DNA of 63,951 bases, filler included, from Nitrospinota bacterium (GTDB lineage Bacteria; JADFOP01), in assembly GCA_022562795.1 (NCBI GenBank). It is 3 parts of 3 records of this genome, joined end to end, with 100 filler letters (N's around TTAATTAATTAA, not from the genome) between each part and the next. Parts side by side here need not be neighbours in the genome. Positions count along the whole stretch, not along the records: positions 1 to 31,040 come from JADFOP010000024.1; 2 more parts are not named here. One strand, 5' to 3'. Of the stretch, positions 1,947 to 25,936 are shown one piece after another. How positions within the stretch are numbered: the first letter of the stretch is position 1; each line of letters begins with the position of its first letter. The translations under genes were made by a program, and so were the position numbers. The notes below the pieces were generated by a model. It ran no database searches. It was given only the letters and a program-made list of their open reading frames with translations, and was not told the origin of the DNA.

Positions 1947-2291
1947 ATCCCCATCTCCTTCTTGAGAATAAATCTCCAGTCGGTCCAACAATCCGTCTGC
2001 TAGCTAGCACGGGCTCAAGATCGATGTGGAGTCCCCACGTTCTTCCTCACTATCAAGGCTGTCGATTGCACTGGTAACCTGGGCAGAGAAAGCACGTTAT
2101 TATGTGTATACCCTCTAACGAATCAGTGCAGTAGAGGCGCCGCAATGCGCAGCGATCGGACACGGAAACCCTAAGATTCTTAGCAACGCAAAACAAACCA
2201 TCGATGAGAGGCGTCATTCACCCTCCTCTATGGGCGGCCGCTCGTGTGGTGACACGAGGGCTCATGAATTTGGAAAAATGCATCGACCCTA

Positions 2292-2320
2292 TTGACATCA
2301 GATCTAAAGGCACTTATTAA
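2292..2320 (+). promoter_or_regulatory. Sigma70-like promoter for the Rrf2 gene
   Basis: TTGACA (2292-2297), 17 bp spacer, TATTAA (2315-2320), followed by tandem TATAGATAAA x2. Confidence 0.6.
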
Positions 2321-2374
2321 TATAGATAAATATAGATAAATCGATGAATAAATCAAGTATTAAATAAGGCTACC

Positions 2375-2860
2375 ATGATTTCTGCAACGTCCGAGCATGC
2401 TCTTCGTGCCATAGCCAGCATTGCTGCCGTGACCAATCCCACCTCCCCGGAAACCAGGGAGCCGATTTTGGCTCGCGACCTTTCCTCGAGAGCTGGGGTG
2501 CCCCTCAACTACCTCTCGAAAATCTTAGGAACCCTGAGCAGGGCGGGCATCCTGCAAGCGAGTCGTGGACGGGGCGGCGGATACCGTCTCGTCCGGTCCG
2601 CCGACCAGATCCCCCTCATCGACGTCGTCGAGCTGTTTGACGGGGTCACAGCCCGGCCGGACTGCTTTTTCGGAGGGGGTCGTAAGTGCTCCGACGATGA
2701 TCCCTGCACCGCGCATGATGCCTTTAAGCAGGTCCGGGAGCAGTACATAGATTTCCTTGAATCGACGACAATCGCCGATATCGCGGGCCCCACCTACGCG
2801 GACGGCGCGCCGGCCGGGGGGCTCCCTCCCTTGATCCGACAAGAAAATGCATTCTCTTGA
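2375..2860 (+). CDS. Rrf2 family transcriptional regulator (Fe-S binding, IscR/NsrR-like)
   Basis: wHTH with YLSKIL..L.RAG...S.RG.GGGY and three Cys (CFFGGGRKCSDDDPC). Confidence 0.92.
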   Translation: MISATSEHALRAIASIAAVTNPTSPETREPILARDLSSRAGVPLNYLSKILGTLSRAGILQASRGRGGGYRLVRSADQIPLIDVVELFDGVTARPDCFFGGGRKCSDDDPCTAHDAFKQVREQYIDFLESTTIADIAGPTYADGAPAGGLPPLIRQENAFS

Positions 2861-2871
2861 CTTAAGTCAAG
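2856..2871. promoter_or_regulatory. Perfect palindrome CTTGACTTAAGTCAAG, Crp/Fnr-type (TTGA-N6-TCAA) operator candidate
   Basis: Seen directly; identical copy at 21729-21744. Confidence 0.7.
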
Positions 2872-2982
2872 GCTCAAACGGGAGGGCGAACATACTTTTA
2901 TTGGAAGACCATAGTTGGAGCCATCCAGGTTGGCTCCTAATGAGGGTTCCGAGGTGAGAGCGAGAGCTCTTGGTTAGTAAAA

Positions 2983-3219
2983 ATGGGTACTTCTCGCCGC
3001 TTTGAGATTTTCCTGGACTGCCTGTGGGGCTTTCCGCTTCTCGCAGGCTTGCTCTTGATTCCGTTGAGCTTGATCACCTTAGATGCGTCGGGAGCGATTG
3101 GTGCTTCGGCCTTGTGGCTTCATCTCGTCTTGCTCGCCACGTTCGCCTACACCTTCAGCCTTCGACTCCGGCACCGATTTCCTTTGTTACAGCGAAAGAG
3201 GAAAAGTAATGAACTGTAG
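2983..3219 (+). CDS. Small hypothetical 2-TM membrane protein
   Basis: 78 aa with two hydrophobic stretches and a basic tail, first ORF of the run; weak RBS. Confidence 0.4.
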   Translation: MGTSRRFEIFLDCLWGFPLLAGLLLIPLSLITLDASGAIGASALWLHLVLLATFAYTFSLRLRHRFPLLQRKRKSNEL

Positions 3220-3286
3220 CGTAACTAGGCGTCGGGTGGCGAACAACCATGCGGATACGACTTATCACCCAGAGGGCAAAAGAAAG

Positions 3287-4414
3287 ATGAGGATCTTCCA
3301 GAGGTGCCTGCTTGAGCGACTGGTTGTGGCCGCCTGCATGGTGGCACTGCTTGGCGGGAGCGCTGCCTGGGGGGCCGAGAAGTATTCTCCTCTCGGCCCG
3401 CTTCCAGACCTGAAACAACCTGATTCGGCGAGGGTTGAGCTGGGGCGGTATCTCTTCTTCGATTCGCGGCTCTCGGGTGACACCGCCCTCAGCTGCGCCA
3501 GCTGCCACTTGCCGACCAAAGGTTGGACCGACGGCCTCCCGCTATCCAGAGCGTACCCGGGTTCCGAATACTTCCGAAACGCCAAGACCGTCCTCAACGC
3601 CGTCCACGCCGAGGTCTTATTCTGGGATGGCCGTCTCTCCTCCGACCCGTTTGAAACGCACGTCAGGGACCACCTCACCGAGAGCCACTTCATGAACATG
3701 GACGGGCGCCTCATGCAGGAGCGGATCAAGCAGATCCCAGAATACGTCAAGATGTTCAAGAACGCTTGGAATTCGGAGCCGTCTTTCGGGAAAATCCGCA
3801 ACTCAATCCGCGACTTTGAGAAGACCCTGGTCTCCCGGAACGTCCCCTTCGACAGGTTCATGAAGGGGGACAAAAGGGCGCTATCGGCCAAGGCCAAAAG
3901 AGGCTTGGCCCTATTCAAGGGCAAAGCAGGCTGCATGCGGTGCCACAACGGCGCTTATTTCTCCGACGGGAAGCCGTACAATCTTGGGGTTCCGACCAAC
4001 CCCGACATCGTAAAAAACCCCTTGCGTCACATCGGTATGCGCTCCTTCTTTCTGGGTATGGGGGTTCCAGGGTTTGAACACCTAACAGAGGACGTGGGCT
4101 ATTACACCGTCTCAAAGGTCGAGGCCGACAAGGGAAAGTTTGTGACCCCCACGCTCCGGGAATTATCCCGGACGGCGCCCTACATGCATAATGGGATGCT
4201 GAAGACCCTTGATGAGGTAATTAAGTTCTACGGCAGAGGTGGAGGAAAGAGTCCAAACAAGACGCCGTTGCTCAAACCACTTCGCCTCACCGCCAGCGAG
4301 AAGGCGGCTTTGGTGGAGTTTCTAAAGAGTCTCAGCGGGGATGAGGTTGTCGTCGCGGTTCCCGAGTTACCGAAATATGAGGTTATCAAAAACTGGCTCA
4401 AGGTAAAGAATTAA
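3287..4414 (+). CDS. idrP: Di-heme cytochrome c peroxidase/MauG family, IdrP-like (copy 1)
   Basis: Signal peptide, LG..LFFD.RLS, CASCH and CMRCH, TAPYMHNG; lies upstream of idrBA-like genes. Confidence 0.85.
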   Translation: MRIFQRCLLERLVVAACMVALLGGSAAWGAEKYSPLGPLPDLKQPDSARVELGRYLFFDSRLSGDTALSCASCHLPTKGWTDGLPLSRAYPGSEYFRNAKTVLNAVHAEVLFWDGRLSSDPFETHVRDHLTESHFMNMDGRLMQERIKQIPEYVKMFKNAWNSEPSFGKIRNSIRDFEKTLVSRNVPFDRFMKGDKRALSAKAKRGLALFKGKAGCMRCHNGAYFSDGKPYNLGVPTNPDIVKNPLRHIGMRSFFLGMGVPGFEHLTEDVGYYTVSKVEADKGKFVTPTLRELSRTAPYMHNGMLKTLDEVIKFYGRGGGKSPNKTPLLKPLRLTASEKAALVEFLKSLSGDEVVVAVPELPKYEVIKNWLKVKN

Positions 4415-4477
4415 TCGGGCTCGGATAGTAAAGGGGATGCGCAACAGCGTTTCGTCGACAGAGGAGAAGCAAAGCCC

Positions 4478-5629
4478 ATGAGAGTGCGATTTTGGATACT
4501 CATCCCAGTGCTCCTGGCTATCGTTTTGGGTCTCTTCCTGGCGCCCCGGCCTGACATCGCCACGGGGAAAGAACCCTTCCCGTCTCTCGGGCCGTTGGGG
4601 CCGGTACCCACCCCCCCGGACAATCCCACGACGCCGGCCAAAGTGGAATTGGGAAAGCTGCTCTTCTTTGATAACCGCCTCTCCGGCGATGGCAGCACTC
4701 CTTGCCTAAGCTGCCACGTCCCTCAAGTGGGCTGGGGGGACGGAGGGGACATATGTCACGGCTATCCCGGGACGAAGCACTGGCGTAACTGCCAAACGAT
4801 AGTCAATTCGGCGTATTACAATAAGCTGTTCTGGGCCGGCTCCTCCAAAAGCTTGGAGGCCCAGGCGGAGACGGCAGCAAGGGGAGCAGTGGCGGGCAAC
4901 GGGGAGCGTGATATGATGGAAGCCCGCCTCCTTCAGATCCCGGAATATGTCAAGCGGTTCAAGGAGGTCTTTGGGACACGCAGCCCCCATCTCAAGGACG
5001 CCTGGCGCGCCATCGCCGCCTTCGAGCGGACCATCGTTCAGCGAAACACCCCCTTCGACCGCTACATAAAGGGCGACAAGGGGGCGATGTCGGCAAAGGC
5101 CGTAAGGGGACTTGCCCTGTTTTCGGGTAAAGCCGGGTGCGTCCAGTGCCACAACGGCTCCCTCCTAACCGACCAGAAATACTACAATTTAGGCGTGCCA
5201 GAGAATCCCACCTTTCAGAGGGACGCCCAGCACCAGATTACCTTCCGGTTTGAGCAATACGCCAAGGGGGTTACCGAAGATATCTATCGGACGACGAAAA
5301 CCGACCTGGGTCTCTACTACCGGATGAAGCGCAAGGAGGATATGGGGAAGTTCCGGACTCCCTCCCTGCGGTATCTGGTCTACACCGCTCCTTATATGCA
5401 TAACGGGGTCTTTAGGACCCTCGAAGAAGTTATCAAGTTCTACAACAAGGGCGGTGGAGAAGATATCATCCATAGCCTATACGGGTTCAGTACAAAGACC
5501 AATAAAATCAAGCCACTCAATCTTACTGAAAACGAAAAGGGGGCGCTAAAGGCGTTCCTCGAGAGCTTGAGCGGAGAGCAAATCATCGTGAACCCTCCAA
5601 AGCTTCCCGAATACGCGGTCTATAAGTGA
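4478..5629 (+). CDS. idrP: Di-heme cytochrome c peroxidase/MauG family, IdrP-like (copy 2)
   Basis: Signal/TM segment, PPDNPTTPAKVELGK.LFFD.RLS, CLSCH and CVQCH, FRTPSLR, TAPYMHNG. Confidence 0.87.
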   Translation: MRVRFWILIPVLLAIVLGLFLAPRPDIATGKEPFPSLGPLGPVPTPPDNPTTPAKVELGKLLFFDNRLSGDGSTPCLSCHVPQVGWGDGGDICHGYPGTKHWRNCQTIVNSAYYNKLFWAGSSKSLEAQAETAARGAVAGNGERDMMEARLLQIPEYVKRFKEVFGTRSPHLKDAWRAIAAFERTIVQRNTPFDRYIKGDKGAMSAKAVRGLALFSGKAGCVQCHNGSLLTDQKYYNLGVPENPTFQRDAQHQITFRFEQYAKGVTEDIYRTTKTDLGLYYRMKRKEDMGKFRTPSLRYLVYTAPYMHNGVFRTLEEVIKFYNKGGGEDIIHSLYGFSTKTNKIKPLNLTENEKGALKAFLESLSGEQIIVNPPKLPEYAVYK

Positions 5630-5658
5630 TGAGCTGCGGGGAGAGGGGAAAAGGGACC

Positions 5659-6213
5659 ATGAATTCAGACCAAGCGCAAGAGAGACCCTGTATGACCAGG
5701 CGGCAGTTTCTGCTGGCCAGTGGGAGCGTTACCCTTACAACCGTCTTTCTGCCCTCGATTCCCGGCCTCCTAGGTCGGGCAGAGGCGGTCCCGGCGACGC
5801 TGACAAAATATCCGAAGAAAAAGGTCGGGAAGCTCAGCGCCTTGAAGACGGATGCGCCCAGGTACTTCAATTATCCCTTTAAAGATATGTATTCGCAGAA
5901 CATGCTCGTGAAATTGGGTGCCCCCGCATCGGGAGGCGTCGGGGCTGATCAAGATATCGTGGCCTTCAGCACCTTGTGCACCCACATGGGAGGACCCCTG
6001 GCCGGGAGATACAAGAGTCAAGATAAGGTCCTGGGGCCCTGCCCGCTCCACTTGACCACCTTTGACCTGACCCGGCACGGGATGGTCGTCGCCGGCCACG
6101 CCACCGAATCTCTGCCCCAGGTCGTCTTGGAGGTCCGGGGCGATACCATCTACGCCACGGGGATTCTGGGTCTGGTTTACGGCAAGCGCAATAACCTTGA
6201 TACGGGAAAGTAG
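5659..6213 (+). CDS. idrB: Rieske [2Fe-2S] small subunit of AioB/IdrB type, Tat-exported
   Basis: TRRQFLL Tat motif; CTHMG and CPLH Rieske ligands; GHATESLPQ motif. Confidence 0.88.
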   Translation: MNSDQAQERPCMTRRQFLLASGSVTLTTVFLPSIPGLLGRAEAVPATLTKYPKKKVGKLSALKTDAPRYFNYPFKDMYSQNMLVKLGAPASGGVGADQDIVAFSTLCTHMGGPLAGRYKSQDKVLGPCPLHLTTFDLTRHGMVVAGHATESLPQVVLEVRGDTIYATGILGLVYGKRNNLDTGK

Positions 6214-6254
6214 ATAGGGACCGTTATGGTCTTCCGGTGAGGAGGTAGGACATT

Positions 6255-8930
6255 ATGTCGGAACGGAAATACAAACGGCAGGACAAGGTCCCCTTGCCAC
6301 CGCCTGATGCGAAGGTGTTCACCACGGCCTGCGACTATTGCATTGTGGCGTGCGGGTATAAGGTCTACCGCTGGCCGGTGGGCAAGGAGGGGGGGCTCAA
6401 GGCCAAAGAAAACGCACTGGGCGTAGATTTTCCCGTCTCGCCGCTGAGCGGTAAGTGGGTTACCCCCAATATGCACAACGTGGTGAGGGCCGACGGACGC
6501 CTTCACAACGTTGTCGTCATTCCAGACGGCGATAGCAAGGTGGTCAATGTTGGCGGGACTCACAGCATCCGCGGGGGCTGTATCGCCCAAAAGGTCTTTA
6601 ACCCCGAAACGCCAACTAAGGATCGCCTGCAGCGTCCTCTCCTTCGGGTGGGGGGGAAGCTGACGCCGGTTTCGTGGGATACTGCCTTTGACATTATGGC
6701 CAAGGTCTCTAAGCACGTACTCGACACGCAAGGCGTCCATGCCTGGGCCATGAAGATGTTTTCCTACCATTATTATGAGAACACTTTCGCCTTGACAAAG
6801 TTGGCCTTTAGTTACATTGAAACACCGGCCTTTGCCTTTCACGACAATCCATCCGTGGCGCCCGACACCCCGGGGTTCCGGGATGTTGGATTTGACAACT
6901 TCTCAGCTTCATACGAAGACTGGTCCCTCGCCGACGTCCTCTACATCTCAGGGACCGATCCTTATGAGACCAAAACGGTCATCTTCACCCATTGGATTCT
7001 TAAAGGAATTAACACGCACAATATGAAATTGATCTACGCCCTCCCGCGCAAGACGACGGGCGTGGCTCATGCCGAGGCCACGGGGGGACTGCACCTATGG
7101 CTTATTCCCGGAACTGATACCGTGCTTCACATGGCCATAGCCCGGGTCATCTTGGAGAACGGATGGGAAGATAAGGAGTGGATTGCCCAGTTCACTAATA
7201 ATAAGTGGGGCACCGACTCCGGCTTTGGCCAGGGCACCCGGAACACACAGTGGCAGTGGCGAACCACGTGGGGCAAGCTCGAGACCAAGGGCTTTAAGGA
7301 CTACAAGGAGTGGATCCTGGCCCAGGAGGAGTCGAAGCTCGATGTCGCGGAGAAAATCACTGGGGTCCCCAGAGGCGACATCGTCCGGGCGGCGGAGATG
7401 ATGGCCAAGCCGCGGCCAGACGGGTCGCGCCCTAAGACCTCGATCGGAATCGAGAAGGGCAACTACTGGTCCAACAACTACCTAAACACCGCCTCGATCG
7501 GCTCCTTGGCATTGCTTTGCGGGGCGGGCAACAGGCCGGGCCAGATGGTCTCACGTTTCGGCGGCCACCAGAGGGGAGGCCGTAAAGGGGGCCGCTATCC
7601 CATGGAGAAGTCGCCGGAGAAGTACCCGGGCCGCCGCCGGAAATCTCTCGACCTCGACAGGTGGGTCGAGGCGGGCAATGTGCGGTTCTGCTGGTGCATT
7701 GGCACTACATGGGTTGGCTCCATGACGGCCTCTCAGGCCATGGAGGAGACTTTCAAACGCAGCACTGTTGCCAATCCGCATCAAATCAGGCGGAAAGATG
7801 CAAAGCATGCCGTTGAGGTTCTCAAGCAGCGTGTCGACAACGGCGGGATGATGCTCGTTTTCCAGGATATCTATCTACGCCAGCCGCTGGGTACGAAGTA
7901 TGCAGACCTGGTGCTGCCAGCGGCTACGTGGGGAGAAGAGGACTTCACCCGGTCCAACGGCGAGAGGAGAATTCGCCTTTATTCCAAGTTCTACGATGCG
8001 CCGGGGGAGTCGAAGCCTGATTGGTGGATTGCGGCCCAGTTTGCCAAGAAGATGGGCTCTAAGGGATTCAACTGGAAGGACTCCAACGAAGTCTTCGAGG
8101 AATCGGCCCGCTTCGGGCGCGGCTCCCGCACGGACTATTACCCCCTGGTCTGGCTCGCTAAAAAGAAGGGGATGAGGGCCCATGAGCTGCTTAGGAGCAT
8201 GGGGACTGAAGGTATCCAATGCCCTATCAGGTACGAAGACGGAAAGCTCGTTGGCACGAAGCGACTCCACGACTCCACCCTGAAACTGCCCGAGGGCGGG
8301 CCCGAGGGGCCCACAATCTGGCCCAAGTTCCTCACAGCCTTCAAATCCCAAACGGGCAAGGCCAATTTCATCAAGTCTCCCTGGAGTCTCTTTTCCGACT
8401 TTTACGAGTGGTTTAAGCCGAAGGGCGATGAGCTATGGATCACCAACGGCCGCATCAACGAGATTTGGCAGTCGGGTTACGACGATATGGAGCGGCGGCC
8501 ATACATCACCGAGCGATGGCCGGTCAACTTCATGGAAATCCACCCGGAGGACGCCGAGGCCCGGGGCATCGAAAGCGGGGATTGGGTGGCTGCCGAAAAC
8601 GATCGCGTTCCGGTCCAAGTCAGCGGGTTCTACGGCGTCCAACCCAACGACTTCACCTTTACGGAGCTGATGAAGGCAGGCCACATAAAGCTGACCAAGG
8701 CCAGGATTAACGCCGTGGCCTTAGTCACCCCAGCGGTCCGCAAGGGCGTGGCATGGATGTACTTCCTCGACCCCAAGCAGCCGGCCAACAGTTTAGTTGC
8801 GCGGGTGGTCGACCCCCTTACGAACAACTATCGCTTCAAGCTTGGGATGGGCCGGGTTCGAAAGACCGGCGAGTCACCCTACAAGCGGTCGTTGGAGGAA
8901 ATGTCCTTTGCGCGCCGGGATATTGCATAA
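6255..8930 (+). CDS. idrA: Molybdopterin oxidoreductase large subunit, AioA/IdrA family (iodate reductase-like)
   Basis: VPLPP..A...TTACDYCIVACGYKVYRWPVGKEGG, HSIRGG ([3Fe-4S] CX2CX3C...S); no Tat leader; HDNPS..PGFRD in place of the AioA HNRPAYNSE signature; flanked by two peroxidases. Confidence 0.85.
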   Translation: MSERKYKRQDKVPLPPPDAKVFTTACDYCIVACGYKVYRWPVGKEGGLKAKENALGVDFPVSPLSGKWVTPNMHNVVRADGRLHNVVVIPDGDSKVVNVGGTHSIRGGCIAQKVFNPETPTKDRLQRPLLRVGGKLTPVSWDTAFDIMAKVSKHVLDTQGVHAWAMKMFSYHYYENTFALTKLAFSYIETPAFAFHDNPSVAPDTPGFRDVGFDNFSASYEDWSLADVLYISGTDPYETKTVIFTHWILKGINTHNMKLIYALPRKTTGVAHAEATGGLHLWLIPGTDTVLHMAIARVILENGWEDKEWIAQFTNNKWGTDSGFGQGTRNTQWQWRTTWGKLETKGFKDYKEWILAQEESKLDVAEKITGVPRGDIVRAAEMMAKPRPDGSRPKTSIGIEKGNYWSNNYLNTASIGSLALLCGAGNRPGQMVSRFGGHQRGGRKGGRYPMEKSPEKYPGRRRKSLDLDRWVEAGNVRFCWCIGTTWVGSMTASQAMEETFKRSTVANPHQIRRKDAKHAVEVLKQRVDNGGMMLVFQDIYLRQPLGTKYADLVLPAATWGEEDFTRSNGERRIRLYSKFYDAPGESKPDWWIAAQFAKKMGSKGFNWKDSNEVFEESARFGRGSRTDYYPLVWLAKKKGMRAHELLRSMGTEGIQCPIRYEDGKLVGTKRLHDSTLKLPEGGPEGPTIWPKFLTAFKSQTGKANFIKSPWSLFSDFYEWFKPKGDELWITNGRINEIWQSGYDDMERRPYITERWPVNFMEIHPEDAEARGIESGDWVAAENDRVPVQVSGFYGVQPNDFTFTELMKAGHIKLTKARINAVALVTPAVRKGVAWMYFLDPKQPANSLVARVVDPLTNNYRFKLGMGRVRKTGESPYKRSLEEMSFARRDIA

Positions 8931-9056
8931 GAGCAACCTTGACCGTCGGAGGCTCACTGGATTCCTCACGGTGTGGGAGCCTTCGGATGGCAGAGATGCA
9001 GGTCAATGGACCGCTATGAGGATTATGTCGTTTATACCCACTTGGGAGGTGCGGCC

Positions 9057-12000
9057 ATGAGGAGAGGGATGACCCGACGGGAGTTTCTTCAGTGGGCTAG
9101 CGCTGCCGGCTTCGGTGCCTTCGTCGCCTCTGCCACCGACGCCTGGGGCCTTGATACGATTAAGAACCCCTTGGCGCACTATCCGAACCGCGGCTGGGAG
9201 AAGACGTATCGCGACATCTGGGACTACGACTCGCTCTTCACCTTCCTCTGCGCGCCCAACGATACGCATAACTGCATTCTAAACGCCTATGTTCGCTCTG
9301 GCGTGATGACCCGGATAGGCCCGACAATGGGCTACGGTAAAGCGACCGACCTTTACGGCAACCAGGCGAGCCACCGTTGGGACCCTCGGGTATGCCAGAA
9401 GGGGCTTGCGCTGACGCGTCGCTTCTACGGCGACCGGCGCGTGCGACACCCAATGGTCCGCGCGGGCTTCAAGCGGTGGGTGGAGGCAGGTTTCCCGCGT
9501 GGTGAGGACGGCCAGCCGCCGGCCGATTATTTCCAGCGCGGACGTGACGAGTGGGTGCGCGCCTCCCACGACGAGGCTGCGGCCATGGTCGCCTCGACCC
9601 TGAAGAACATTGCAGAGACCTACAGCGGCGAGAAGGGCGCAAGTCTGCTTCACGCCCAGGGCTATGACGAAGATATGATCGCCGCCATGAAGGGGGCCGG
9701 CACCCAGGCGCTCAAGTTCCGTGGCGGGATGCCGCTTCTTGGGATGACGCGCATCTTAGGCATGTATCGCATGGCCAACTCTTTGGCGTTGCTCGATGCC
9801 AAAATCAGGGGCGTCGGCCAGGATAAGGCTCTCGGCGGCCGTGGCTTCGATAACTACTCCTGGCACACAGACCTTCCCCCCGGACACCCAATGGTGACCG
9901 GCCAGCAGACGGTCGAGTTTGACCTAAGCGCCGTCGAGCACGCCAAGACCGCCATTGTTTGGGGCATGAACTGGATTAGCACCAAGATGCCAGACGCCCA
10001 CTGGCTGACCGAGGCGCGCCTCAAGGGGACGAAGATCGTTGTAATCGCCTGTGAGTACTCCTCCACGGCGAGCAAGGGTGACGAGGTGATAATCGTTCGT
10101 CCCGGCACGACGCCGGCGCTGGCCCTCGGACTGGCTGGCGTGCTCATACGGGAGAAACGCTACGACGCGGATTACGTCAAGAAATGGACCGACCTGCCGG
10201 TGCTGGTGCGCATGGACACTCTCAAGTACCTCCGGGCCGAGGAGGTCTTCGGCGGCGGTCCCGCACCGCTAAGGAATCAAACACGGGTCTTGCGCAAAGG
10301 TGAGAAGGCTCCTCCGCCCGGCGTTCAGCGTGAGCAGCTCATCCCCGAAGACCTCCGCAACGAGTGGGGCGACTACGTCTGGTGGGACCGCCGAACGAAA
10401 GCCCCGAAGCTCCTCACTCGAGATGAGGTTGGCAAAAAATCAGGGGTAGGCGACCCGCTCCTTGAGGGCTCCGTCAGGGTCACTCTAAAAGATGGATCGG
10501 AGGTCCGCTGCCGCCCGGTGTTCGACCTTGTGCGAGAGTATGTTGAGCATTTCGACCCCAAGACGGTGGAGGACCTCACCTGGGCCCCGGCGACGGCGGT
10601 CACATCCCTCGCCCGGCAGATTGCCAAGGAGCCCGGGACCACCCTCTTTGCGATGGGGATGGGCCCGAACCAGTTCTTTAACAACGATAATAAGGACCGC
10701 GCCGTCTTTCTCCTGGCGGCGCTGACCGGCAATGTCGGCAAGATTTCCGGAAACGTTGGCTCCTACGCGGGCAACTACCGCGTGGCCCTCTTCAACGGCC
10801 TGCCCCAGTACGTCGGCGAGAACCCCTTCGATATCGAGCTCGATCCCTCAAAGCCGGCCCGGCCCAAGAAGTTCTGGAAAGCTGAGTCAGCCCACTACTG
10901 GAACCACGAGGACAAGCCACTCCGGGTGGGCAAGCGCCTGCTGACCGGCGCCACGCACATGCCCACACCGACCAAGTCCCTCTGGTTCGCCAATGCGAAC
11001 TCCATCCTCGGCAACGTCAAGCACCACTACAACGTCGTAGTCAACGTGTTACCTAAGATGGAGATGATTTCGGTTCAGGATTGGTGGTGGACGGCCTCAT
11101 GCGAGTGGGCCGACGTCGTATTCGCGGCGGACTCCTGGGCGGAGCTCAAGCATCCCGACATGACCGCCTCGGTGACGAATCCATTCCTTACGGTCTTTCC
11201 GCGCACGCCTCTGCCGCGCGTTTTCGACACCATTGGGGACATTGAGATCTTGGCTCTCGTTGGCCGCAAGATGGCCGAGCTGACGGGGGACAATCGCTTC
11301 GACGACCACTGGCACTTCGTACGTGAGGGGCGGACCGACGTCTATCTCCAGCGGATTCTCGACCACTCCTCCAACACGAAGGGCTACCGGTTCACGGAGC
11401 TCGAGGAGAAGGCAAAGAAGGGGATACCCACCTTGATGATGAACCGGACCTACCCAAAGGCGGTGGGCTACGAACAGGCCGAGGAGTCGAGGCCCTGGTA
11501 CACCAAGACCGGACGCCTCGAGTTTTACCGCGAAGAGGACGAGTTCATCGAGGCGGGCGAGAATCTGCCGGTCCACCGCGAGCCGATCGACTCCACCTTC
11601 TACGAGCCGAACGTCATTGTCTCCGCGCCGTGTGAGGCCCTCCGGCCGGCCGGCCCGGAGGACTACGGGGTCTCTCCCGACGACCTCTCGAGCGAGACGC
11701 GCCAGGGGCGAAACGTAGTGAAATCCTGGGCCGAAATGAGCCGCTCGCACCATCCGCTGGCCAAGGACGGCTATAAGTTCATCTTCCACACGCCCAAGTT
11801 TCGCCACGGCGCCCACACCATGCCTGTCGATACCGACATGGTCGCCATGCTCTTCGGCCCCTTCGGCGACATCTATCGCCACGATAAGCGAATGCCATTT
11901 GTGGCTGAGGGTTACGTTGACATGAACCCGGACGACGCCAAGGACTTGGGGGTTGAGGACGGCGATTACGTCTGGGTTGACGCCGACCCGAGCGACAGAC

Positions 12001-12515
12001 CGTTCAGGGGTTGGCAGAAGAACAAGCGAGATTATGAGTTCTCGCGCCTGCTTTGCCGGGCCCGCTACTATCCCGGCACGCCGCGCGGGGTCACGCGCAT
12101 GTGGTTCAACATGTACGGGACTACCCCGGGCTCGAGGGAGGGGCACAAGACCCGGCCCGACGGGCTGGCGAAAAACCCGAAGACCAACTACCAGGCGATG
12201 TTCCGCTCGGGCTCACACCAGTCGGCCACTCGAGGGTGGCTGAAGCCCACTTTGATGACCGACTCGCTGGTGCGCAAGGGTGTCTTGGGCCAGGTCATCG
12301 GTAAGGGGTTCGTCCCCGACGTTCACTGTCCCACCGGCGCCCCGCGCGAGGCGTTTGTGAAAATCACCAAGGCCGAGCCGGGTGGCATCGGCGGAGAGGG
12401 CCTGTGGCGTCCCGCGAAGCTCGGCTATCGCCCTCGCTACGAAAGCAAGAAGATGAAGAAATACATCAAGGGGGCATTCATTAAGCAAGGCAAGGGCGAG
12501 GGAGGTAAAAGCTAA
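9057..12515 (+). CDS. nxrA: Periplasmic type II DMSO-reductase family alpha subunit, NXR/NarG-like (related to Nitrospira/anammox-type NxrA)
   Basis: RBS GGAGGT; Tat [15 protein letters not shown]...RVCQKG FS0 motif (C-D-C-C); [11 protein letters not shown] with Mo-ligand Asp; ~1150 aa. Direction and substrate not determinable. Confidence 0.82.
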
Positions 12516-13651
12516 TGCCGAACGTTCGTAATTGGCAGATCGGGCGGGATATGCCCTATCCCTATGAGGAGGTGCGGCCAAAGAAGCAGTTCGCAGGGGT
12601 TTTTGACATCAACAAGTGCATTGCCTGCCAGACCTGTACCCTCGCCTGCAAGACCACCTGGACGTCGGGAAAGGGCCAGGAGTACATGCTCTGGAACAAC
12701 GTGGAGACGAAACCATACGGCTCTCATCCATTAGGGTGGGACGTGCGAATCCTAAACGAGCTCGGCCCCCAAGAGTGGGACGGCGACAAGTACAAGGGGC
12801 GCACCATTTTCGAGGCGGCTCCTCCCGGAGAGCAGGTGCTCGGTTGGAAACCTGAGGATCTGGATTACGCCCACCCGAACGTCGGCGAAGACGACTCCGT
12901 CGGCAAGGTCGAGAAGGGGCTACACCTTCACGCGCCCCACATGAACTGGTTCTTCTACCTGGCCAAAACGTGCATGCATTGCACCTACCCCGCTTGCCTC
13001 GCCTCCTGCCCGCGCCAATCGATCTACAAGCGGCCCGAGGACGGCATCGTCTTGATAGACCAGGACCGTTGTCGAGGCTACCGAGAGTGCGTGAAGGGCT
13101 GCCCGTACAAGAAGGCCTACTACAACCCGATGACGGGGACCTCCGAGAAGTGCATTGGCTGCTATCCCAAGCACGATGTGAGTGGGCCAAAGGAGGCGCC
13201 GCAGTGCTTCGTCACCTGCATCGGGAAGATTCGGTGTGCCGGCTGGATCTCGCGGCCGGAGAAGGCTCGGGAAGACAACCCCATCGACTACCTCGTCCAC
13301 TTCCGCAAGGTCGCACTTCCGCTTTACCCCCAGTTCGGTCTCGAGCCGAACATGTACTACATCCCCCCGATTCACGTTCCCAAGCCCTTCTTGCGCCAGA
13401 TGTTCGGCCCGGGAGTTGACCACGCCATCGAAACCTACCGTAAGATACCCGACGACAAAGACCTGGCCGGCCTGCTGACGCTCTTCGGCTCCACTCCCCT
13501 GGTTTTCCCGCGGTGGAGGCGGAAGGGGGACACGGTCTTCGGGCTCGACGAGGACGGCAGCGAGATCGTGCGGGTGCCGATCACCGAGCCGGTCCACATC
13601 CGGGTCGCCTTTGATGCGACCCACGGTGTGGTGCGGACTAATATCCCATGA
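12515..13651 (+). CDS. nxrB: Fe-S beta subunit (NxrB/NarH-like)
   Basis: MPNV.NWQIGR.M.YPYEE N-terminus; [45 protein letters not shown]...CFVTC. Confidence 0.88.
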
Positions 13652-13664
13652 GGAGGCTGACGCC

Positions 13665-14528
13665 ATGCGACGATTAACCTGTCCTGTCGCCCTTCTGGTG
13701 CTTCTAGTTACGGTTGGGGCGCCCTTCGCCGTCGCTACACCCGAGGCTGCCGCCGAGGTAGTCGCCCTCCGGCGCGGTGTCCTTCCGGCCGATCCCGGTG
13801 ATGTCGCCTGGCGCAAGGCTCCAATGCATGTGGCGCCCCTAGTCCCGCAAAATCTGGTCGCGCCGAGGCTGATGGAGCCCTCGACCAAGGAGGTCCGGGT
13901 GCAAGCGATGACCGATGGAAACCGGGTTGCGTTCCGGCTCGCCTGGGCTGATTCGACTAATGACGACCTCCCTGGAGCAAAGCGCTTTACCGACGCCTGT
14001 GCCGTTATGCTTCCGCAGGACGCCATGGCCCCGGTCCCCTCTCCCATGATGGGCGCTGCCGGGACCCCGGTCGAAATAACCTACTGGTCGGCCTTCTGGC
14101 AGGCGGCGCTTGATGGTCGTGGCGATACGATCAAGGACATCTACCCCGGCGCGGCGGTGGACCACTATCCCTTCGAGGCCCCCTCGCTGAAGCCGGGCTC
14201 GAAAGAGCAGAGGGCGATGGCGATGAGATACGCTCCGGCCCGCGCCCTCGGCAATCGCCGGGTAGGGCCGCGTGAACGCCCGGTCGAGGACCTTGTGGCC
14301 GGGGGGCCGGGAACCATTACCCGGGCGGGTACGACCAAGTCCAACGGCCACGGTAGCCGGACCGAGGAAGGCTGGGCGGTCGTCATCTCCCGTCCCCTAA
14401 CGAAGGGCCTTCGCCCCGGGAGCCAGTCGCATGTTCAATTTGCCGTTTGGAATGGGTCTCATGGCGAGGTGGGCTCGCGCAAGATGTGGTCGGGCTGGAT
14501 TCCTCTACGCATCAAGGAGGATAGGTAG
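13665..14528 (+). CDS. Periplasmic heme-b gamma subunit (ethylbenzene dehydrogenase gamma/DOMON-like)
   Basis: RBS GAGGAGG, Sec signal, F.DA.AV..P, P.PMMG, FAVWNG...E.G.RK; position after alpha and beta. Confidence 0.8.
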   Translation: MRRLTCPVALLVLLVTVGAPFAVATPEAAAEVVALRRGVLPADPGDVAWRKAPMHVAPLVPQNLVAPRLMEPSTKEVRVQAMTDGNRVAFRLAWADSTNDDLPGAKRFTDACAVMLPQDAMAPVPSPMMGAAGTPVEITYWSAFWQAALDGRGDTIKDIYPGAAVDHYPFEAPSLKPGSKEQRAMAMRYAPARALGNRRVGPRERPVEDLVAGGPGTITRAGTTKSNGHGSRTEEGWAVVISRPLTKGLRPGSQSHVQFAVWNGSHGEVGSRKMWSGWIPLRIKEDR

Positions 14529-14530
14529 CC

Positions 14531-15127
14531 ATGGCTCGCCCTGACGCTCCGGAGGTTCAGGAATTCTTGGCTGAGGCGGCGGAGTGGCGCCTTATAGGTC
14601 TGCTGTTGGAGCGTCCTCGCTCCGGTTGGGAGGACGAGGTTAAGAGCCTTGGCAGCGAAGTGCTGGACGAGCCTCTTCGGGCGGCGGCCGAAGCTGCCCG
14701 GGAGGCCACCGAGGGAACCTACCTGGGCCTTCTGGGGCCGGGCGGCTTCGTCTCCCCCCGTGAGGTCGCCTACCGTCCCCAGGAGGACCCCGGTAAGATC
14801 ATGTCTGACCTGGCGGCTTTTTACGAAGCTTTCGCCTTCTCCCCCAAGGCCGAGGACCCGCTCGACCACATTGCGGTGGAGGCGGGCTTCGCTGGCTACC
14901 TCCGGTTGAAGGAATTATATGCCTTGGCGCGAAGAGATGAGAAGGGGGCCGCCACGACCGCCGAAGCACACCGCCACTTTCTGGAGGAGCACCTGGGAAC
15001 CTTCGTCGAGCCCTTTGCCCAAGGCCTGGAGCCTTCCGGGGTTTCCTACCTCGTTGCAGCCGCGCGTGGGCTCCTCGAACGAGTAAAGAAATCTTTGGAC
15101 GAAACGGCCGGCGTCTCCGAGCCATAA
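14531..15127 (+). CDS. TorD/DmsD-family molybdoenzyme maturation chaperone
   Basis: FYEAFAF...[13 protein letters not shown] and FLEEHL motifs. Confidence 0.85.
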
Positions 15128-15198
15128 GACGCCGCTCTGGGTCTATTATGGTCAATATGGATCATCAAGAACCTGTACCCCGCATGAAAGCGATCGAC

Positions 15199-16410
15199 AT
15201 GAATCTGCCCATTTACATGGACAATAACGCCACAACGCCTGTCGACGGGCGGGTCCTGGAGGCGATGCTTCCCTACTTTTGCGAGGAGTACGGTAACGCC
15301 GCAAGCCGAAACCATTCATTTGGTTGGCGGGCTGAGGAGGCCGTAGGGCGGGCCAGGGAGCAGGTCGCCCGGCTGATAGGAGCCAAGCCCAGGGAAATTA
15401 TCTTCACGAGCGGGGCGACCGAGAGCGACAACCTCGCTTTGAAGGGCGTGGCCGAGATGTATCGGGAGAAGGGCGATCACATCATCACCCAGGTGACCGA
15501 GCATAAAGCGGTGCTAGATTCGGCCAAGCGTCTCGAGCGGCAGGGCTTCGAGGTCACCTATCTGCCGGTCGACCGAGACGGGCTGGTAGACCCGGACGAC
15601 GTGCGGCGTGCGCTCAGGGAGACGACGATTCTCATCTCCATCATGGCTGCCAATAACGAGATTGGGGTGGTGCAGCCGTTGGAGGAGATCAGCCGTATCG
15701 CGAAGGAGCGTGGAGTGCTGTTTCACAGCGACGCGGCCCAGGCCGCAGGCAAGGTGCCGGTGGACGTGGAAGCCTGGGGGGTGGATCTTGTGAGTCTGAG
15801 CGCCCACAAGATGTATGGGCCTAAGGGGGTGGGCGCGCTCTACGTTCGGCGTCGAAACCCCCGGGTACGGCTCTCCCCGATGATGGACGGCGGCGGCCAC
15901 GAGCGTGGCATGCGTAGCGGTACCCTCGACGTTCCGGGCATAGTTGGGTTCGGAGCGGCTTGCGAGCTGGCTTACCGGGAGATGGAAGCGGAGGCCGAGC
16001 GACTTCGGTTCCTCAGGGACCGGCTGGAAGGGGGCATCCTGTCCCACGTAGAGGAGGTCTACCGTAACGGCCATGCCGAGCGGCGCCTGCCGGGCACGAG
16101 CAACCTCTCGTTCGCCTACGTGGAGGGCGAAAGCCTGATGATGGGCCTCAACGAGATTGCCGTCTCCAGCGGCAGCGCCTGTACCTCGGCCATCCTCGAG
16201 CCCTCGCACGTCCTGAGGGCGCTCGGAGTGGGCGAGGAGCTAGCCCATTCCTCCATCCGTTTCAGCCTCGGTCGGTTCAACACCGAAGAGGAGGTCGATT
16301 ACGTCATTCAGCGAGTTAAGGAAACAGTGGAGCGGCTCCGAGAGATGTCGCCCCTCTACGAGATGGTCAAAGAGGGGATCGACCTCTCGAGCGTTCAGTG
16401 GCAGACCTGA
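15199..16410 (+). CDS. iscS: Cysteine desulfurase IscS (start may be 15148 or 15184)
   Basis: [19 protein letters not shown] (PLP Lys), SSGSACTS. Confidence 0.97.
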
Positions 16411-16434
16411 GGCAGGCAAGGCGGGAACGCAATC

Positions 16435-16857
16435 ATGGCATACAGCGACAAGGTCATCGACCACTACAAAAACCCCCGCAATGTAGGCTCTTTCCCAAAG
16501 GAGGAGCTCGGCGTGGGGACGGGTATCGTCGGGGCCCCAGAGTGTGGCGATGTGATGAAGCTCCAGATCAAGGTCAACGAAGAGACCGAGGTCATCGAAG
16601 AGGCCCTGTTTAAGACCTTCGGTTGCGGCAGCGCCATCGCCTCCTCAAGCCTGGTGACCGAGTGGGTCAAGGGCAAGAGCATCGAGGAAGCTCTCAGTAT
16701 CAAGAACACGCAAATCGTCAACGAGCTGAGCCTTCCGCCGGTCAAGATTCACTGCTCTGTTCTTGCCGAAGACGCCATTAAGGCCGCCATTGCTGATTAC
16801 AAGAAGAAGATCGATCAGGCAGGCAACGAAGCTCATGGCCACCATCGAGACCAATAA
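16435..16857 (+). CDS. iscU: Fe-S scaffold IscU
   Basis: MAYSDKVIDHY.NPRNVG, GAPECGD, FGCGSA, LPPVKIHCS. Confidence 0.97.
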   Translation: MAYSDKVIDHYKNPRNVGSFPKEELGVGTGIVGAPECGDVMKLQIKVNEETEVIEEALFKTFGCGSAIASSSLVTEWVKGKSIEEALSIKNTQIVNELSLPPVKIHCSVLAEDAIKAAIADYKKKIDQAGNEAHGHHRDQ

Positions 16858-17545
16858 GCACACGGATCACCTCTGCTGGTCCTGTTACCAACCCACCGGA
16901 GGGAAACCCTTCTGCCCCGACTGCTTTAAGGTCCAGTTTCATCAGCCCAAGGCCGATTACTTCAGCATCTTGGGGCTGGATGCGAGAAGAATGAGTCTGG
17001 AGCCGGAGAGGCTGGAGGAGGCCTTCTACGCGCTGAGCCGACGTGTTCACCCGGACCACTATCAGAGCCGCAACCCAACGGAACGCCGGATTGTCGAAGA
17101 ATGCGCGGCCTTGGTCAACGTCGCTTACCGCACTTTGCGAGACCCCATCGCCCGAACGGAATACCTCCTTGAACTGGAGACAGGCTCCCCGCAGGAGCAC
17201 CGGGACCAGCCGCCGGCAGAGCTCCTTAGTCAGCTGATGGAAATCGAGGAGATAGTGGAGGCCTACCAAGGTTCGGGAGGAGCCGAACGAGGGGCCCTGA
17301 AAGACTCTCTAAAGGAGGTTCACCGCTCCCTTGAGGCCCGCCGGGAGGCAACAGAGACCGAGCTCCACGAGACCTTCGAACTCTGGGACCGTCTCGTGCT
17401 GGAAGAAGGCTCAGAAGAGCCCAAGGCCTCATTGCTCAAGCGCTTACGGGAGCTTCTTCATCATCGTAGTTATCTCACAACGACCATCCGGGACATCTCG
17501 GCTGCTCTCGCCGGTGACCCGCGCCCGGAGCCCGAGGTGGACTGA
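16835..17545 (+). CDS. hscB: Co-chaperone HscB with N-terminal tetra-Cys motif
   Basis: CWSC...CPDC, J-domain HPD, VNVAYRTLRDPIAR.EYLL. Confidence 0.92.
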   Translation: MATIETNKHTDHLCWSCYQPTGGKPFCPDCFKVQFHQPKADYFSILGLDARRMSLEPERLEEAFYALSRRVHPDHYQSRNPTERRIVEECAALVNVAYRTLRDPIARTEYLLELETGSPQEHRDQPPAELLSQLMEIEEIVEAYQGSGGAERGALKDSLKEVHRSLEARREATETELHETFELWDRLVLEEGSEEPKASLLKRLRELLHHRSYLTTTIRDISAALAGDPRPEPEVD

Positions 17546-17551
17546 CCCGCT

Positions 17552-19828
17552 ATGAGTCGCGTCGTCGGAATCGACCTGGGAACCTCCAACAGCCTTGTGG
17601 CCTATATGGATGGTGGCGGGCCTCGCGTTATCGCCGGGCCCGACGGAAGCAAGCTTGTCCCCTCGGTCATCAGCTTTGATGACGGCCAGGCCGTCATTGG
17701 CGAGCAAGCGAGGGCCAGACGCATCACCCGGGTGGACTCCACCGTCTACTCGGTAAAGCGCTTCATGGGCAAGGGGATCGAAGATCTTTCCGCTGAGCTC
17801 GCCTACCTTCCATTTCAGCTTACCGGCAACGAGCGCGAGATTGTCCAGATCAAAGTGGCCGGGAGGGACTACACTCCTATGGAGCTTTCGGCACTGATTC
17901 TTCGGGAGCTCAAGGGCCGAGCCGAGGCCTTCTTCGGCGGGCCGGTTACCAAGGCGGTCATCACCGTCCCAGCTTACTTCCACGACGTCCAGCGGCAGGC
18001 AACCAAGGACGCCGGCAAGCTCGCCGGCCTGGAGGTCTTGCGCATTGTCAACGAGCCCACGGCGGCCTGTCTGGCCTACGGGCTCGACAAGCGCCAAGAC
18101 GGTATCGTAGCCGTCTACGACCTTGGCGGGGGCACCTTCGACATCTCCATCCTCAAGCTCAAGGACGGCATATTCGAGGTGCTCTCAACCAGCGGGGATA
18201 CGATGCTCGGCGGCGACGACCTCGACCACAGGCTCATGGAGCTCATCCTCAATGAGGTTGAGGCTGCCGGTGGCCAGGGCCTCCGCAGTCGGCCGGAGGT
18301 CCTCGAGCGGGTTCGGGCGGCTGCCGAGGAGGCTAAAGTGGCCCTGTCCGAGGCCGAAGAGACATGGATTGTTATCGAGGGCGAAGGGCTAGGGAGCGAC
18401 CTCGACTACCGCCGGCTCCTTACACGGGAAGAATTTGAGGCTCTTGTGGGCGACCTCGTTCAAAAAACCGTTCGCCCCTGCCTCCAGGCTTTGGAGGATG
18501 CCCGTCTCACACCTGAGGAAATTGATGAGGTCCTCCTTGTGGGAGGCTCCACACGGGTGCCAATGGTGCGCCGGGTTGTGGCAGAGACCTTCTCTCGAGA
18601 ACCCCACAGCGAGCTGAACCCGGAGGAGGTCGTCGCTCTGGGGGCGGCCATTCAGGCCGACATCCTGGCGGGGAACAACCAAGAGCTGCTCCTGCTCGAC
18701 ATTACACCTCTGTCGCTCGGCATCGAGACCATGGGCGGCGTGGTGAGTACGCTCATCCCCCGAAATACTACAATTCCCACGCGGGCGACCGAGGTCTTCA
18801 CCACCTTCGTTGACGGCCAGGTCAACGTCGAGATTAACGTGCTCCAGGGCGAGCGGGAGCTGGCCCAGGACTGCCGAAGCCTAGCCTGCTTCACGCTCAC
18901 CGGCATCGAGCCTCAGCCAGCGGGTATACCTCGCATCAAAGTGACCTTTCTCATCGATGCCAACGGTATTCTCAACGTCACGGCACACGATCAGCGGAGC
19001 GGCAAAGCCCAAACGGTGGAGGTTTCCCCTTCCTACGGGCTCGCCGAAGACGAGGTGGAGAGGATGCTCAGGGATAGCATAGAGCACGCTGAAGCCGACG
19101 TCTCCACCAGGCTGCTCATCGAGACCCGCAGCGAGGCCGACATAATCCTCAATGCCACGGCAAGGGCCCTGGCCACTGATGAGGTTGAGATTCCGGCCGA
19201 GGAGCGCTCGGCCATCGAAGAGGCCGTTTCACGGCTGGAAGAGGCAAAGGGCGGCCTCGACCACCATCGGCTGAGGGACGAGATTGAACGGCTCAACGCC
19301 GCGACCAGGCCACTGGCTGAGCGCATCATGGGTGCGGCTCTCGAGGCGGCCCTGAAGGATCGTCCCTTCTCCGAGATTCTCGACTCTCAGGATGCGCTGA
19401 CCATGCCAAAGGTGACGTTCCTGCCGGACAACGAGACGGTCGAGGTGGAGGAGGGCTCCTCCATCCTCGATGCTGCGCTTGATAACGACCTCTGGCTGGA
19501 CCACAACTGCGGTGGTTGCTGCGCCTGCACAACCTGCCACGTGATCGTCAAGGCCGGAGAAGACAGCCTCTCGGAGATGGAGGAGGATGAAGACGTCCGG
19601 CTGGATGGCGCTGAAGGGCTCACCCTGGCCTCCAGGCTGGGCTGCCAGGCCCGGATATTCGGAGACGTGGTGTTGGAAATTCCCGCCCCACCGGGAGCGG
19701 TCCGCATTGTGGATAAGGCTCAGCTCGCGGCCGGCCAAATCGACGAGGAGACCTACAAGGAGCGCTTCAAATCCACAGAGCTAGCTCGCGGCAGGGAAGG
19801 CAGCAAGACAGGGGAGACGAGACGATGA
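17552..19828 (+). CDS. hscA: HscA chaperone fused in-frame to ISC-type [2Fe-2S] ferredoxin
   Basis: [28 protein letters not shown]. From 19403: MPKVTFLP...[13 protein letters not shown]...SRLGCQ, with no intervening stop. Confidence 0.92.
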
Positions 19829-25886: not shown

Positions 25887-25936
25887 GTGCTGTTGGGGTG
25901 TCTTTGAACACCCCGATGGTGCCGTTAGTGGTCTTT

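Follow-up and report, generated by a model that had tools for sequence, protein, structure and literature searches.

An iodate reductase-type cassette adjoining a periplasmic nitrite oxidoreductase-type gene set in a putative nitrite-oxidising bacterium

Introduction

Do an iodate reductase and a nitrite oxidoreductase that are encoded next to each other work together, or do they merely share a locus? The question is raised by positions 2375-15127 of a 63,951-nucleotide stretch of DNA from a Nitrospinota bacterium (assembly GCA_022562795.1), which was analysed as a whole and is called the window here; the locus lies in the part taken from record JADFOP010000024.1 (positions 1-31,040). A cassette of the iodate reductase (Idr) type is followed on the same strand by a gene set of the nitrite oxidoreductase (NXR) type, and a preliminary description had seen in this arrangement a co-regulated hub of two periplasmic molybdoenzymes. 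We consider that the two are probably independent, self-sufficient periplasmic respiratory modules, placed head to tail, which would draw on a common cytochrome c pool and are separately dispensable.

Results

Gene content of the locus

Gene identities come from profile searches with Pfam and NCBIfam. The genes named in the preliminary description are all present and co-oriented on the plus strand between 2375 and 15127, as is every large open reading frame (ORF) of that interval. The predicted features, with lengths in amino acids (aa) or nucleotides (nt) and with motifs of the twin-arginine translocation (Tat) pathway, are as follows.

2375-2860, plus strand: Rrf2-family iron-sulphur (Fe-S) regulator (PF02082, 6e-27; TIGR00738, 97.6 bits, cut-off 73.3)
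3287-4414, plus strand: di-haem cytochrome c peroxidase at the idrP2 position, 375 aa (CCP_MauG PF03150, 1e-41; hydrophobic signal-like N-terminus)
4478-5629, plus strand: di-haem cytochrome c peroxidase at the idrP1 position, 383 aa (CCP_MauG PF03150, 4.8e-44)
5659-6213, plus strand: idrB, Tat-exported Rieske [2Fe-2S] small subunit (TIGR02694, 124 bits, cut-off 95.7; PF00355; TRRQFL)
6255-8930, plus strand: idrA, molybdopterin catalytic subunit with an N-terminal 3Fe-4S domain, 891 aa (PF18465, Rieske_3; PF00384, Molybdopterin; PF01568, Molydop_binding)
8931-9056, plus strand: idrA-nxrA spacer, 126 nt, with the ribosome-binding site GGGAGG before nxrA
9057-12515, plus strand: nxrA, Tat-exported type II DMSO-reductase alpha subunit, 1152 aa (TIGR03479, 4.5e-94; TRREFL)
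12515-13651, plus strand: nxrB, four-cluster Fe-S beta subunit (TIGR03478, 2.5e-72; PF13247)
13665-14528, plus strand: nxrC, periplasmic haem-b gamma subunit of the EB_dh fold (PF09459, 5.8e-22; TIGR03477, 5.9e-36)
14531-15127, plus strand: nxrD, NarJ/TorD-type assembly chaperone (PF02613, 1.1e-10; TIGR03482)
15148-19828, plus strand: iscS, iscU, hscB and hscA-fdx (NF010611, 660 bits; TIGR01999; hscB, HscA and fdx_isc matches)

The 12-kb block is bounded by the IscR-like Rrf2 gene on one side and by the isc genes on the other, the latter forming its fixed downstream frame. The ORF of idrP2 runs from 3083 to 4414, with its real start at ATG 3287, from which the 375-aa product matches a called protein exactly; that of idrB spans 5626-6213, and starts in called proteins correspond to 5659 or 5692. 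For nxrA, an ORF finder picks GTG 8973; ATG 9057 is preceded by GGGAGG, yields the TRREFL Tat motif and gives a protein of 1152 aa, equal in length to relatives that are 96-98% identical. With ATG 9057 as the start of nxrA, the gap after idrA is therefore 8931-9056, the 126 bp that had been reported for it.

The first module: iodate reductase or arsenite oxidase

Positions 3287-8930 are predicted to hold an iodate reductase cassette, idrP2-idrP1-idrB-idrA, and not canonical aioBA genes. The idrA product has over 1500 relatives, the best 120 of them at 59-99% identity, and is 55-73% identical to proteins that lie within idrP-P-B-A cassettes. Its two peroxidase partners follow suit: the idrP2 protein is 41-60% identical to the first, and the idrP1 protein 50-74% identical to the second, peroxidase of such cassettes. 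Scanning one genome per species returned 80 idr loci with an A subunit at 55-70% identity. The pair idrB-idrA occurs in all of them and at least one peroxidase gene lies directly upstream in 77, while the contigs of the other three end less than 1.2 kb upstream of idrA. One of the 80 loci (L005, 67% identity) belongs to the very Methylomirabilis bin from which an idrP2P1BA cluster was published as iodate reductase (PMC10989891). A search of 72,556 plasmids with idrA matched 58 records, of which the best 40 comprise two at 55% (Azonexus hydrophilus and a Vibrio) and 38 at 29-33%. Azonexus hydrophilus NCP973 is a cultured iodate respirer (PMC13455634); the gene order at its plasmid locus is peroxidase, peroxidase, small subunit, large subunit, cytochrome c, moaA.

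Phylogeny gives the same answer. In a tree of 48 rows, taken from 115 extracted sequences and computed with the quick search of IQ-TREE under LG+G4, the split between Idr and four AioA sequences is supported at 100% on both sides by the Shimodaira-Hasegawa-like approximate likelihood ratio test (SH-aLRT), and the window IdrA is nested within the Idr clade, above the Azonexus NCP973 branch. A grouping with canonical AioA, an outcome for which the preliminary description had allowed, is not seen, and its assignment of the first block to the idrABP1P2 type stands on gene order, clade and a 56% identity to the IdrA of NCP973. In the 115-row alignment, the identity to the four AioA is 32-35%. In all 17 discriminating columns, those where the AioA sequences have a single residue and at least 95% of the Idr proteins share a different one, the window protein shows the Idr state. 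The four AioA reference loci (NT-26, Nitrobacter hamburgensis, Thermus thermophilus and a Burkholderia) contain no peroxidase genes and adjoin aioR or ars.

The closest solved structure to IdrA is that of an arsenite oxidase (312 bits). The substrate-site residues of AioA, which we take to be His195, Glu203, Arg419 and His423 in the numbering of A. faecalis, can be compared with the window protein by alignment. Three of the four (His195, Arg419 and His423) are identical, a point in favour of an arsenite oxidase. The position of Glu203 is occupied by Asp; of 111 Idr-clade proteins, 78 have Ser there and 28 have Asp, which speaks against one.

The NCBIfam arsenite-oxidase models do not resolve the matter: the window proteins score 476 bits against a cut-off of 359 for arsenite_ox_L and 124 against 95.7 for arsenite_ox_S. 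The large-subunit model fails to separate IdrA from AioA, and it is because these models still pass their cut-offs on the window proteins that arsenite-oxidase names appear in databases. Reyes-Umana et al. tell IdrA from AioA by its peroxidase-containing neighbourhood (PMC8692401).

Inspection by eye finds the TRRQFL Tat motif on IdrB, no N-terminal signal on IdrA, and hydrophobic N-termini on both peroxidases. In composition, too, the cassette is an outlier with a foreign look. Its tetranucleotide frequencies correlate with those of the remaining window at 0.853, compared with a minimum of 0.907 for 6-kb control windows, 0.920 for nxr and 0.947 for isc, and its G+C content (3287-8930) is 57.5%, against 60% for the whole window.

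The second module: a periplasmic nitrite oxidoreductase type

The genes nxrA-nxrD are predicted to form a complete periplasmic NXR-type set, with a Tat-exported alpha subunit, a beta subunit, an EB_dh haem-b gamma subunit and a NarJ-type chaperone, as the preliminary description had proposed. Among solved structures, NxrA is closest to that of Kuenenia stuttgartiensis (7B04_B), with 928 bits over its full length (query 5-1143 on chain 3-1145); the scores for perchlorate reductase PcrA, ethylbenzene dehydrogenase EbdA and NarG are 184, 152 and 129 bits, respectively. The difference between 928 and 184 bits led us to reject the alpha subunit as a perchlorate or chlorate reductase, and the earlier suggestion of a stepwise reduction of (oxy)halogens, with the second enzyme taking part, loses its footing. 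NxrC has a signal-like N-terminus and no visible C-terminal membrane anchor, and its 287-aa product matches a called protein exactly. Relatives of NxrA fall into more than 120 protein clusters at 76-98% identity, and the named ones come from very different phyla (Kryptonia, Pirellulales, Thermoanaerobaculia). An NXR of this type has been described as bidirectional, the catalytic direction not being readable from sequence (PMC10732223).

The junction between the modules and its transcription

Fourteen DNA runs, from 7 studies, contain half or more of the words sampled from 7800-10200, and three DNA runs, from three studies, that were aligned on 2000-16500 each cover 30 of 30 bins. A 3946-nt contig of run X12, from an independent study, spans 5201-9146, running from idrB into nxrA and bridging the junction; a 5976-nt contig of run X2 spans 3078-9053. 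Because an independent contig crosses from idrA into nxrA, the junction is not the misjoin that had been considered at first. Consensus scans detected no promoter or terminator in 8931-9056, features whose presence there would have refuted the preliminary description, and the predicted RNA fold of this spacer is no better than that of shuffled sequences (z-score -0.36). In one sediment RNA library (X19), short contigs match idrP2, idrP1, idrA and nxrA at 96-99%; none of them extends across 8931-9056, and being short, many running on into unlike sequence, they decide neither way on co-transcription.

Variants of the locus in close relatives

In run X3, a contig joins position 2895 to position 8867 via 18 other letters, skipping 5971 nt and with them the whole idr cassette save its last 64 nt. 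The breakpoints lie 35 nt after the rrf2 stop codon and 64 nt before that of idrA. The 64 nt that are kept encode Ser874, Lys877 and Arg888, which are invariant in the IdrA family; as these residues are retained, the X3 variant is the layout of the window with idr deleted. The joint contig has a depth of 4.5, whereas those contigs of X3 that carry idr have 12-14.

Other relatives suggest further arrangements. In one metagenome-assembled genome (MAG), Rrf2 and NxrB have accession numbers ending in 641 and 643, while the idr proteins (530-533) are on another contig, suggesting an Rrf2-nxr locus with idr elsewhere. A contig of 10,356 nt appears to hold Rrf2 and NxrA-D and is too short for idr as well. 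In a single-cell genome, the numbers of Rrf2 (124), IdrP2 (123), IdrA (120) and IscU (118) point to an Rrf2-idr-iscS-iscU order without nxr, and in a MAG with a 90% identical NxrA, those of IdrA (926) and NxrA (957) would place about 30 genes between the two cassettes. On several further contigs both cassettes appear to be adjacent, as in the window (e.g., numbers ending in 872 and 873). The Rrf2 gene heads the 5' end of every variant so derived; by accession order, it directly heads the Rrf2-idr-iscS layout in one relative. Taken together, idr and nxr appear to be separately losable, which favours modular independence.

Adjacency of idr and nxr in other genomes

An NXR-like alpha gene lies within 10 kb of idrA in only one of the 80 reference idr loci, a Rokubacteria MAG (L011), where it is on the opposite strand and 41% identical. 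Anywhere in the genome, such a gene was found in 5 of 15 idr-bearing genomes searched. A metagenome scan with IdrA gave 79 loci and did not return the 84-99% relatives known from the protein search; our synteny table consists of 41 of its loci, which are IdrA-like (L083-L123), and two NXR-like ones from a different search (L081-L082), with the other 38 loci of the scan (L124-L161) left out as other molybdoenzymes at 22-27% identity. Two of the 41 IdrA-like loci, L110 and L120, carry on one strand a NarXL-like pair, idrP-P-B-A, Mrp/NUBPL, Rrf2, NXR-like A-B-C and a chaperone. In L120 (2680-22168), the chaperone gene is followed by a cupin gene and then by a CoxB/NosZ-type cupredoxin gene. As L110 and L120 are 99.5% identical, they represent one metagenome lineage, which is unrelated to that of the window. 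Their NXR-like alpha subunits are 54-55% identical to that of the window, and the IdrA of L120 is the nearest neighbour of the window IdrA in the tree (SH-aLRT 88). It is rare for idr and nxr to be adjacent, yet two or more such arrangements have arisen, each with its own NXR lineage. The pairing is seen in the L110/L120 lineage and, by accession order, on contigs of close relatives, so that the complete absence elsewhere which would have refuted the preliminary description does not apply.

A MAG labelled Nitrospinaceae (G002) carries an idr cassette (L007). No NxrA match at E<=1e-100 was present in this MAG or in any of the 33 genomes of its phylum set, and the two phylum sets reached via Nitrospinota-labelled idr loci contained no close relative of the window genome, GlnE identities being at most 45% (51 genomes) and 41% (33 genomes). 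Rrf2 was also considered as a general partner of NXR and rejected: it is missing from the flanks of five other NXR-like loci, two of which are truncated at contig ends.

The published description of the locus

The window lineage fits the account that has been published of Ca. Nitrosediminicolota, a putative marine-sediment nitrite oxidiser. In that account an operon of NxrABC and NxrD is preceded by 'thiosulfate reductase and arsenite oxidase' and followed by iscS, iscU and hscAB (PMC11009272). The match to the window is gene for gene save for the thiosulfate reductase; the upstream neighbours in the window are the Rrf2 gene and a divergent NirA-like gene, and the genes named arsenite oxidase there are the idr cassette here. 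The same paper places the NxrA of Ca. Nitrosediminicolota nearer those of Nitrotoga and Chloroflexota nitrite oxidisers, and argues for nitrite oxidation on ecological and genomic grounds (an aa3-type oxidase, the reductive tricarboxylic acid cycle and few transporters for organic substrates). Proteins at least 90% identical to those of the window carry the NCBI labels 'Nitrospinae/Nitrospinota bacterium' or 'bacterium'.

The word 'iodate' is absent from the main texts of PMC11009272 (supplements not covered), of the Nitrospinota comparative paper PMC10839748 and of PMC10203281. Our literature search found no paper that ties this lineage, or the nxr locus of any nitrite oxidiser, to idr, and none that names the nxr-upstream genes of Ca. 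Nitrosediminicolota Idr. The juxtaposition is already published but mis-named, and its parts are ordinary members of two known systems; the preliminary description's statement that it knew of no described operon with this pairing is not borne out, in view of NxrABC and NxrD with an 'arsenite oxidase' upstream.

The regulator gene and other neighbours

The Rrf2 protein has three Cys residues and one His within its C-terminal half. It was tried as an IscR equivalog and rejected, scoring 69 bits with TIGR02010 against a cut-off of 207 and being encoded 12 kb from iscS. An untranslated stretch of 426 nt separates its gene from idrP2. Upstream of rrf2, the hexamer TTGACA occurs at about 2292-2297, and an AT-rich unit of 10 nt is exactly duplicated in tandem, ATATAGATAA, at 2320-2339; here the Rrf2 protein may have an operator.

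Divergent from rrf2, on the minus strand at 3-1991, is a gene for a NirA-like sirohaem ferredoxin-nitrite/sulfite reductase, which runs off the start of the window; it is a candidate assimilatory nitrite reductase adjoining a nitrite-handling locus. About 10 kb downstream of nxr, at 25748-27256, lies a gene of an 'arsenic efflux protein' family (NF037962, 246 bits), the only arsenic-related name within the annotated stretch.

Among the isc genes, hscA and the isc ferredoxin gene are fused into one frame of 758 aa (17552-19828). In relatives, HscA stops at ...ILDS (612 aa) and a separate ferredoxin of 117 aa begins five codons on. The fusion has the sense codon CAG where the relatives must have a stop codon, and its C-terminus is unlike the 117-aa ferredoxins; the 758-aa form is also present in one Logan contig. 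On the 3' side of the isc genes there follow a radical-SAM gene, a RIC gene and an aconitase gene.

Discussion

Two separately dispensable periplasmic modules with a common cytochrome c pool is the reading that we prefer, and it builds on what was directly observed: which genes are present, the export motifs of their products, the clades to which these belong, the idrA-nxrA junction and one deletion variant or more. By analogy with characterised Idr, IdrB would carry IdrA through the Tat pathway, and the periplasmic IdrAB would take electrons from cytochrome c and reduce iodate, with IdrP1 and IdrP2 removing the peroxide by-product (PMC13455634, PMC10989891). Soluble periplasmic NxrABC would interconvert nitrite and nitrate, exchanging electrons with the same cytochrome c pool, and iodate may be an extra electron sink at low oxygen, fed from the quinol side. 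The idr cassette may have arrived horizontally beside nxr in a variable locus, and the adjacency would not mean that the two enzymes are bound to work as one machine. What the substrates are, how electrons flow and how the genes are regulated is in all this inferred. The hub proposed earlier is weakened in its co-regulated aspect, as close relatives carry either cassette without the other.

Several points weigh against independence of the modules. The X3 joint is one contig, its shorter side measures 34 letters and the likeness threshold was 90%; a short side is what one would expect if the contig stopped at a merger of two assembly paths, yet the evidence is thin. The other variants were derived from the order of accession numbers and the extents of contigs, not from read DNA. 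No terminator or promoter is recognisable in the spacer, so a transcript from idr into nxr, and hence co-regulation, is possible. That L110/L120 show the pairing again, and with another NXR lineage, is a hint of selection for linkage. Finally, in a further metagenome locus (L083, 9205-12933, on a contig of 47% G+C), idrP-P-B-A is followed by genes for a di-haem cytochrome c, for a four-cluster protein of 423 aa that is NxrB-like (47% identity to the window NxrB), for a NarJ-like chaperone and for another cytochrome c, with no type II alpha gene between idrA and the beta-like gene.

The alternative that survives best, although we think it unlikely, is a single Rrf2-controlled operon for anaerobic respiration, in which both enzymes would be terminal reductases, the NXR acting as a nitrate reductase, and nitrate and iodate would be used in sequence. 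The Rrf2 gene does head the block, with the 426-nt untranslated region before idrP2, and in L120, too, an Rrf2 gene lies immediately before the NXR-like genes. Nitrate reductase genes occur in all five iodate respirers that have been isolated, and in two of the five nitrate delays idr expression and iodate reduction (PMC13455634); the bidirectionality described for this NXR type (PMC10732223) would allow the direction required. The idr-deleted variant, however, loses nearly all of the spacer between rrf2 and idrP2 and keeps nxr, so that nxr probably has a promoter of its own or is reached by read-through from rrf2. No repeat or operator was found in common between 2100-3300 and 8860-9060, the flanks of the five other NXR-like loci (two of them truncated at contig ends) lack Rrf2, and the published genome analysis favours nitrite oxidation (PMC11009272).

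Less probable still is a coupled nitrite:iodate system, in which NXR oxidises nitrite and passes the electrons via cytochrome c to IdrAB, iodate replacing oxygen in an anaerobic nitrite oxidation. The two gene sets are on the same strand, with a gap of 126 nt in which no terminator was found; both enzymes are periplasmic, judging from their Tat motifs; the pairing recurs in L110/L120 with a different NXR lineage; and RNA-library contigs match idrP2, idrP1, idrA and nxrA at 96-99%. If the standard potentials are taken as +0.72 V (iodate/iodide) and +0.43 V (nitrate/nitrite), the reaction would be exergonic by about -56 kJ per nitrite. Against these stand the close relatives that lack one or the other cassette at the same locus, the absence of NXR near idr in 79 of the 80 reference loci, the presence of an NXR-like alpha in only 5 of the 15 idr-bearing genomes, and the lack of an RNA contig bridging the idrA-nxrA junction. 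Moreover, an all-periplasmic route from NXR through cytochrome c to Idr would free and use protons on the same side of the membrane; since such a route would by itself build no proton gradient, we prefer independent modules. As to the environment, iodate has been proposed to be what oxidises nitrite in oxygen-deficient zones where the process appears to be anaerobic (PMC8114937, PMC11373643), and because it has been published as a possible oxidant of nitrite in such waters, the locus is worth testing; iodate is, however, depleted in the zone core, and iodate reduction is mostly undetectable there with nitrite present (PMC8114937).

A bolder form of this idea is that NXR and Idr together provide an oxygen-independent path from nitrite through NXR, cytochrome c and IdrAB to iodate, so that the presence or absence of idr marks cells that can or cannot oxidise nitrite anaerobically. 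We would give it even less credence; if it is true, the iodate-driven oxidation of nitrite that has been proposed in oxygen-deficient waters and sediments would gain the enzyme basis that it lacks. In this lineage, such a use of iodate is a possibility.

That the first module is an arsenite oxidase, as the NCBI family models (both subunits above cut-off) and the published naming of the upstream genes (PMC11009272) would have it, and to which the 'arsenic efflux protein' family gene at 25748-27256 could be added, is highly improbable in view of an A subunit that is 32-35% identical to AioA and sits in a clade of peroxidase-linked cassettes with a 100% split from it, of two peroxidase genes that the AioA reference loci lack, of the absence of an adjoining aioXSR or ars gene, and of the neighbourhood criterion of Reyes-Umana et al. 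(PMC8692401), which points to IdrA.

A candidate nitrite-oxidiser phylum abundant in oligotrophic marine sediments has thus been published with an 'arsenite oxidase' beside its NXR, where the evidence says iodate reductase. The re-annotation alters the predicted physiology, making iodate a possible electron acceptor for a nitrifier, and the locus links the nitrogen and iodine cycles, a coupling suspected by oceanographers. The locus itself is fixed and has natural idr-plus and idr-minus forms, a polymorphism whose frequencies along redox gradients could be obtained from public metagenomes; together, re-annotation and polymorphism make an old biogeochemical idea directly testable.

Compared with the IdrABP1P2 systems of Pseudomonas sp. 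SCT, Denitromonas iodatirespirans IR-12 and Azonexus hydrophilus NCP973, the window cassette has the same four genes in the same order, P2-P1-B-A, a Tat motif on the Rieske subunit, a 3Fe-4S Cys motif in the A subunit, and an A subunit of the same clade. The hosts differ: those are heterotrophic denitrifiers, whereas the window host is a putative chemolithoautotrophic nitrite oxidiser in which the iodate function is predicted. In NCP973, idrA is followed by cytochrome c and moaA instead of nxrA. Regulators differ as well, with Rrf2 near the window cassette, a sensor kinase and a sigma-54 activator in NCP973, and the NarXL-like pair in L120.

With the AioBA enzymes of NT-26, Alcaligenes faecalis and Thermus, the first module shares the two-subunit architecture of a Tat-exported Rieske protein and a 3Fe-4S subunit with a molybdenum-bis-pyranopterin guanosine dinucleotide cofactor. 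It differs from them in sequence (32-35% identity, a separate clade, the Idr state in 17 of 17 columns) and in its surroundings, with two peroxidase genes and no aioXSR/ars neighbourhood. The second module resembles the periplasmic NxrABC of the Kuenenia, Nitrospira, Nitrospina and Nitrotoga type in its Tat-exported alpha, beta and EB_dh haem-b gamma subunits, in its chaperone and in the full-length match of its alpha subunit to that of Kuenenia.

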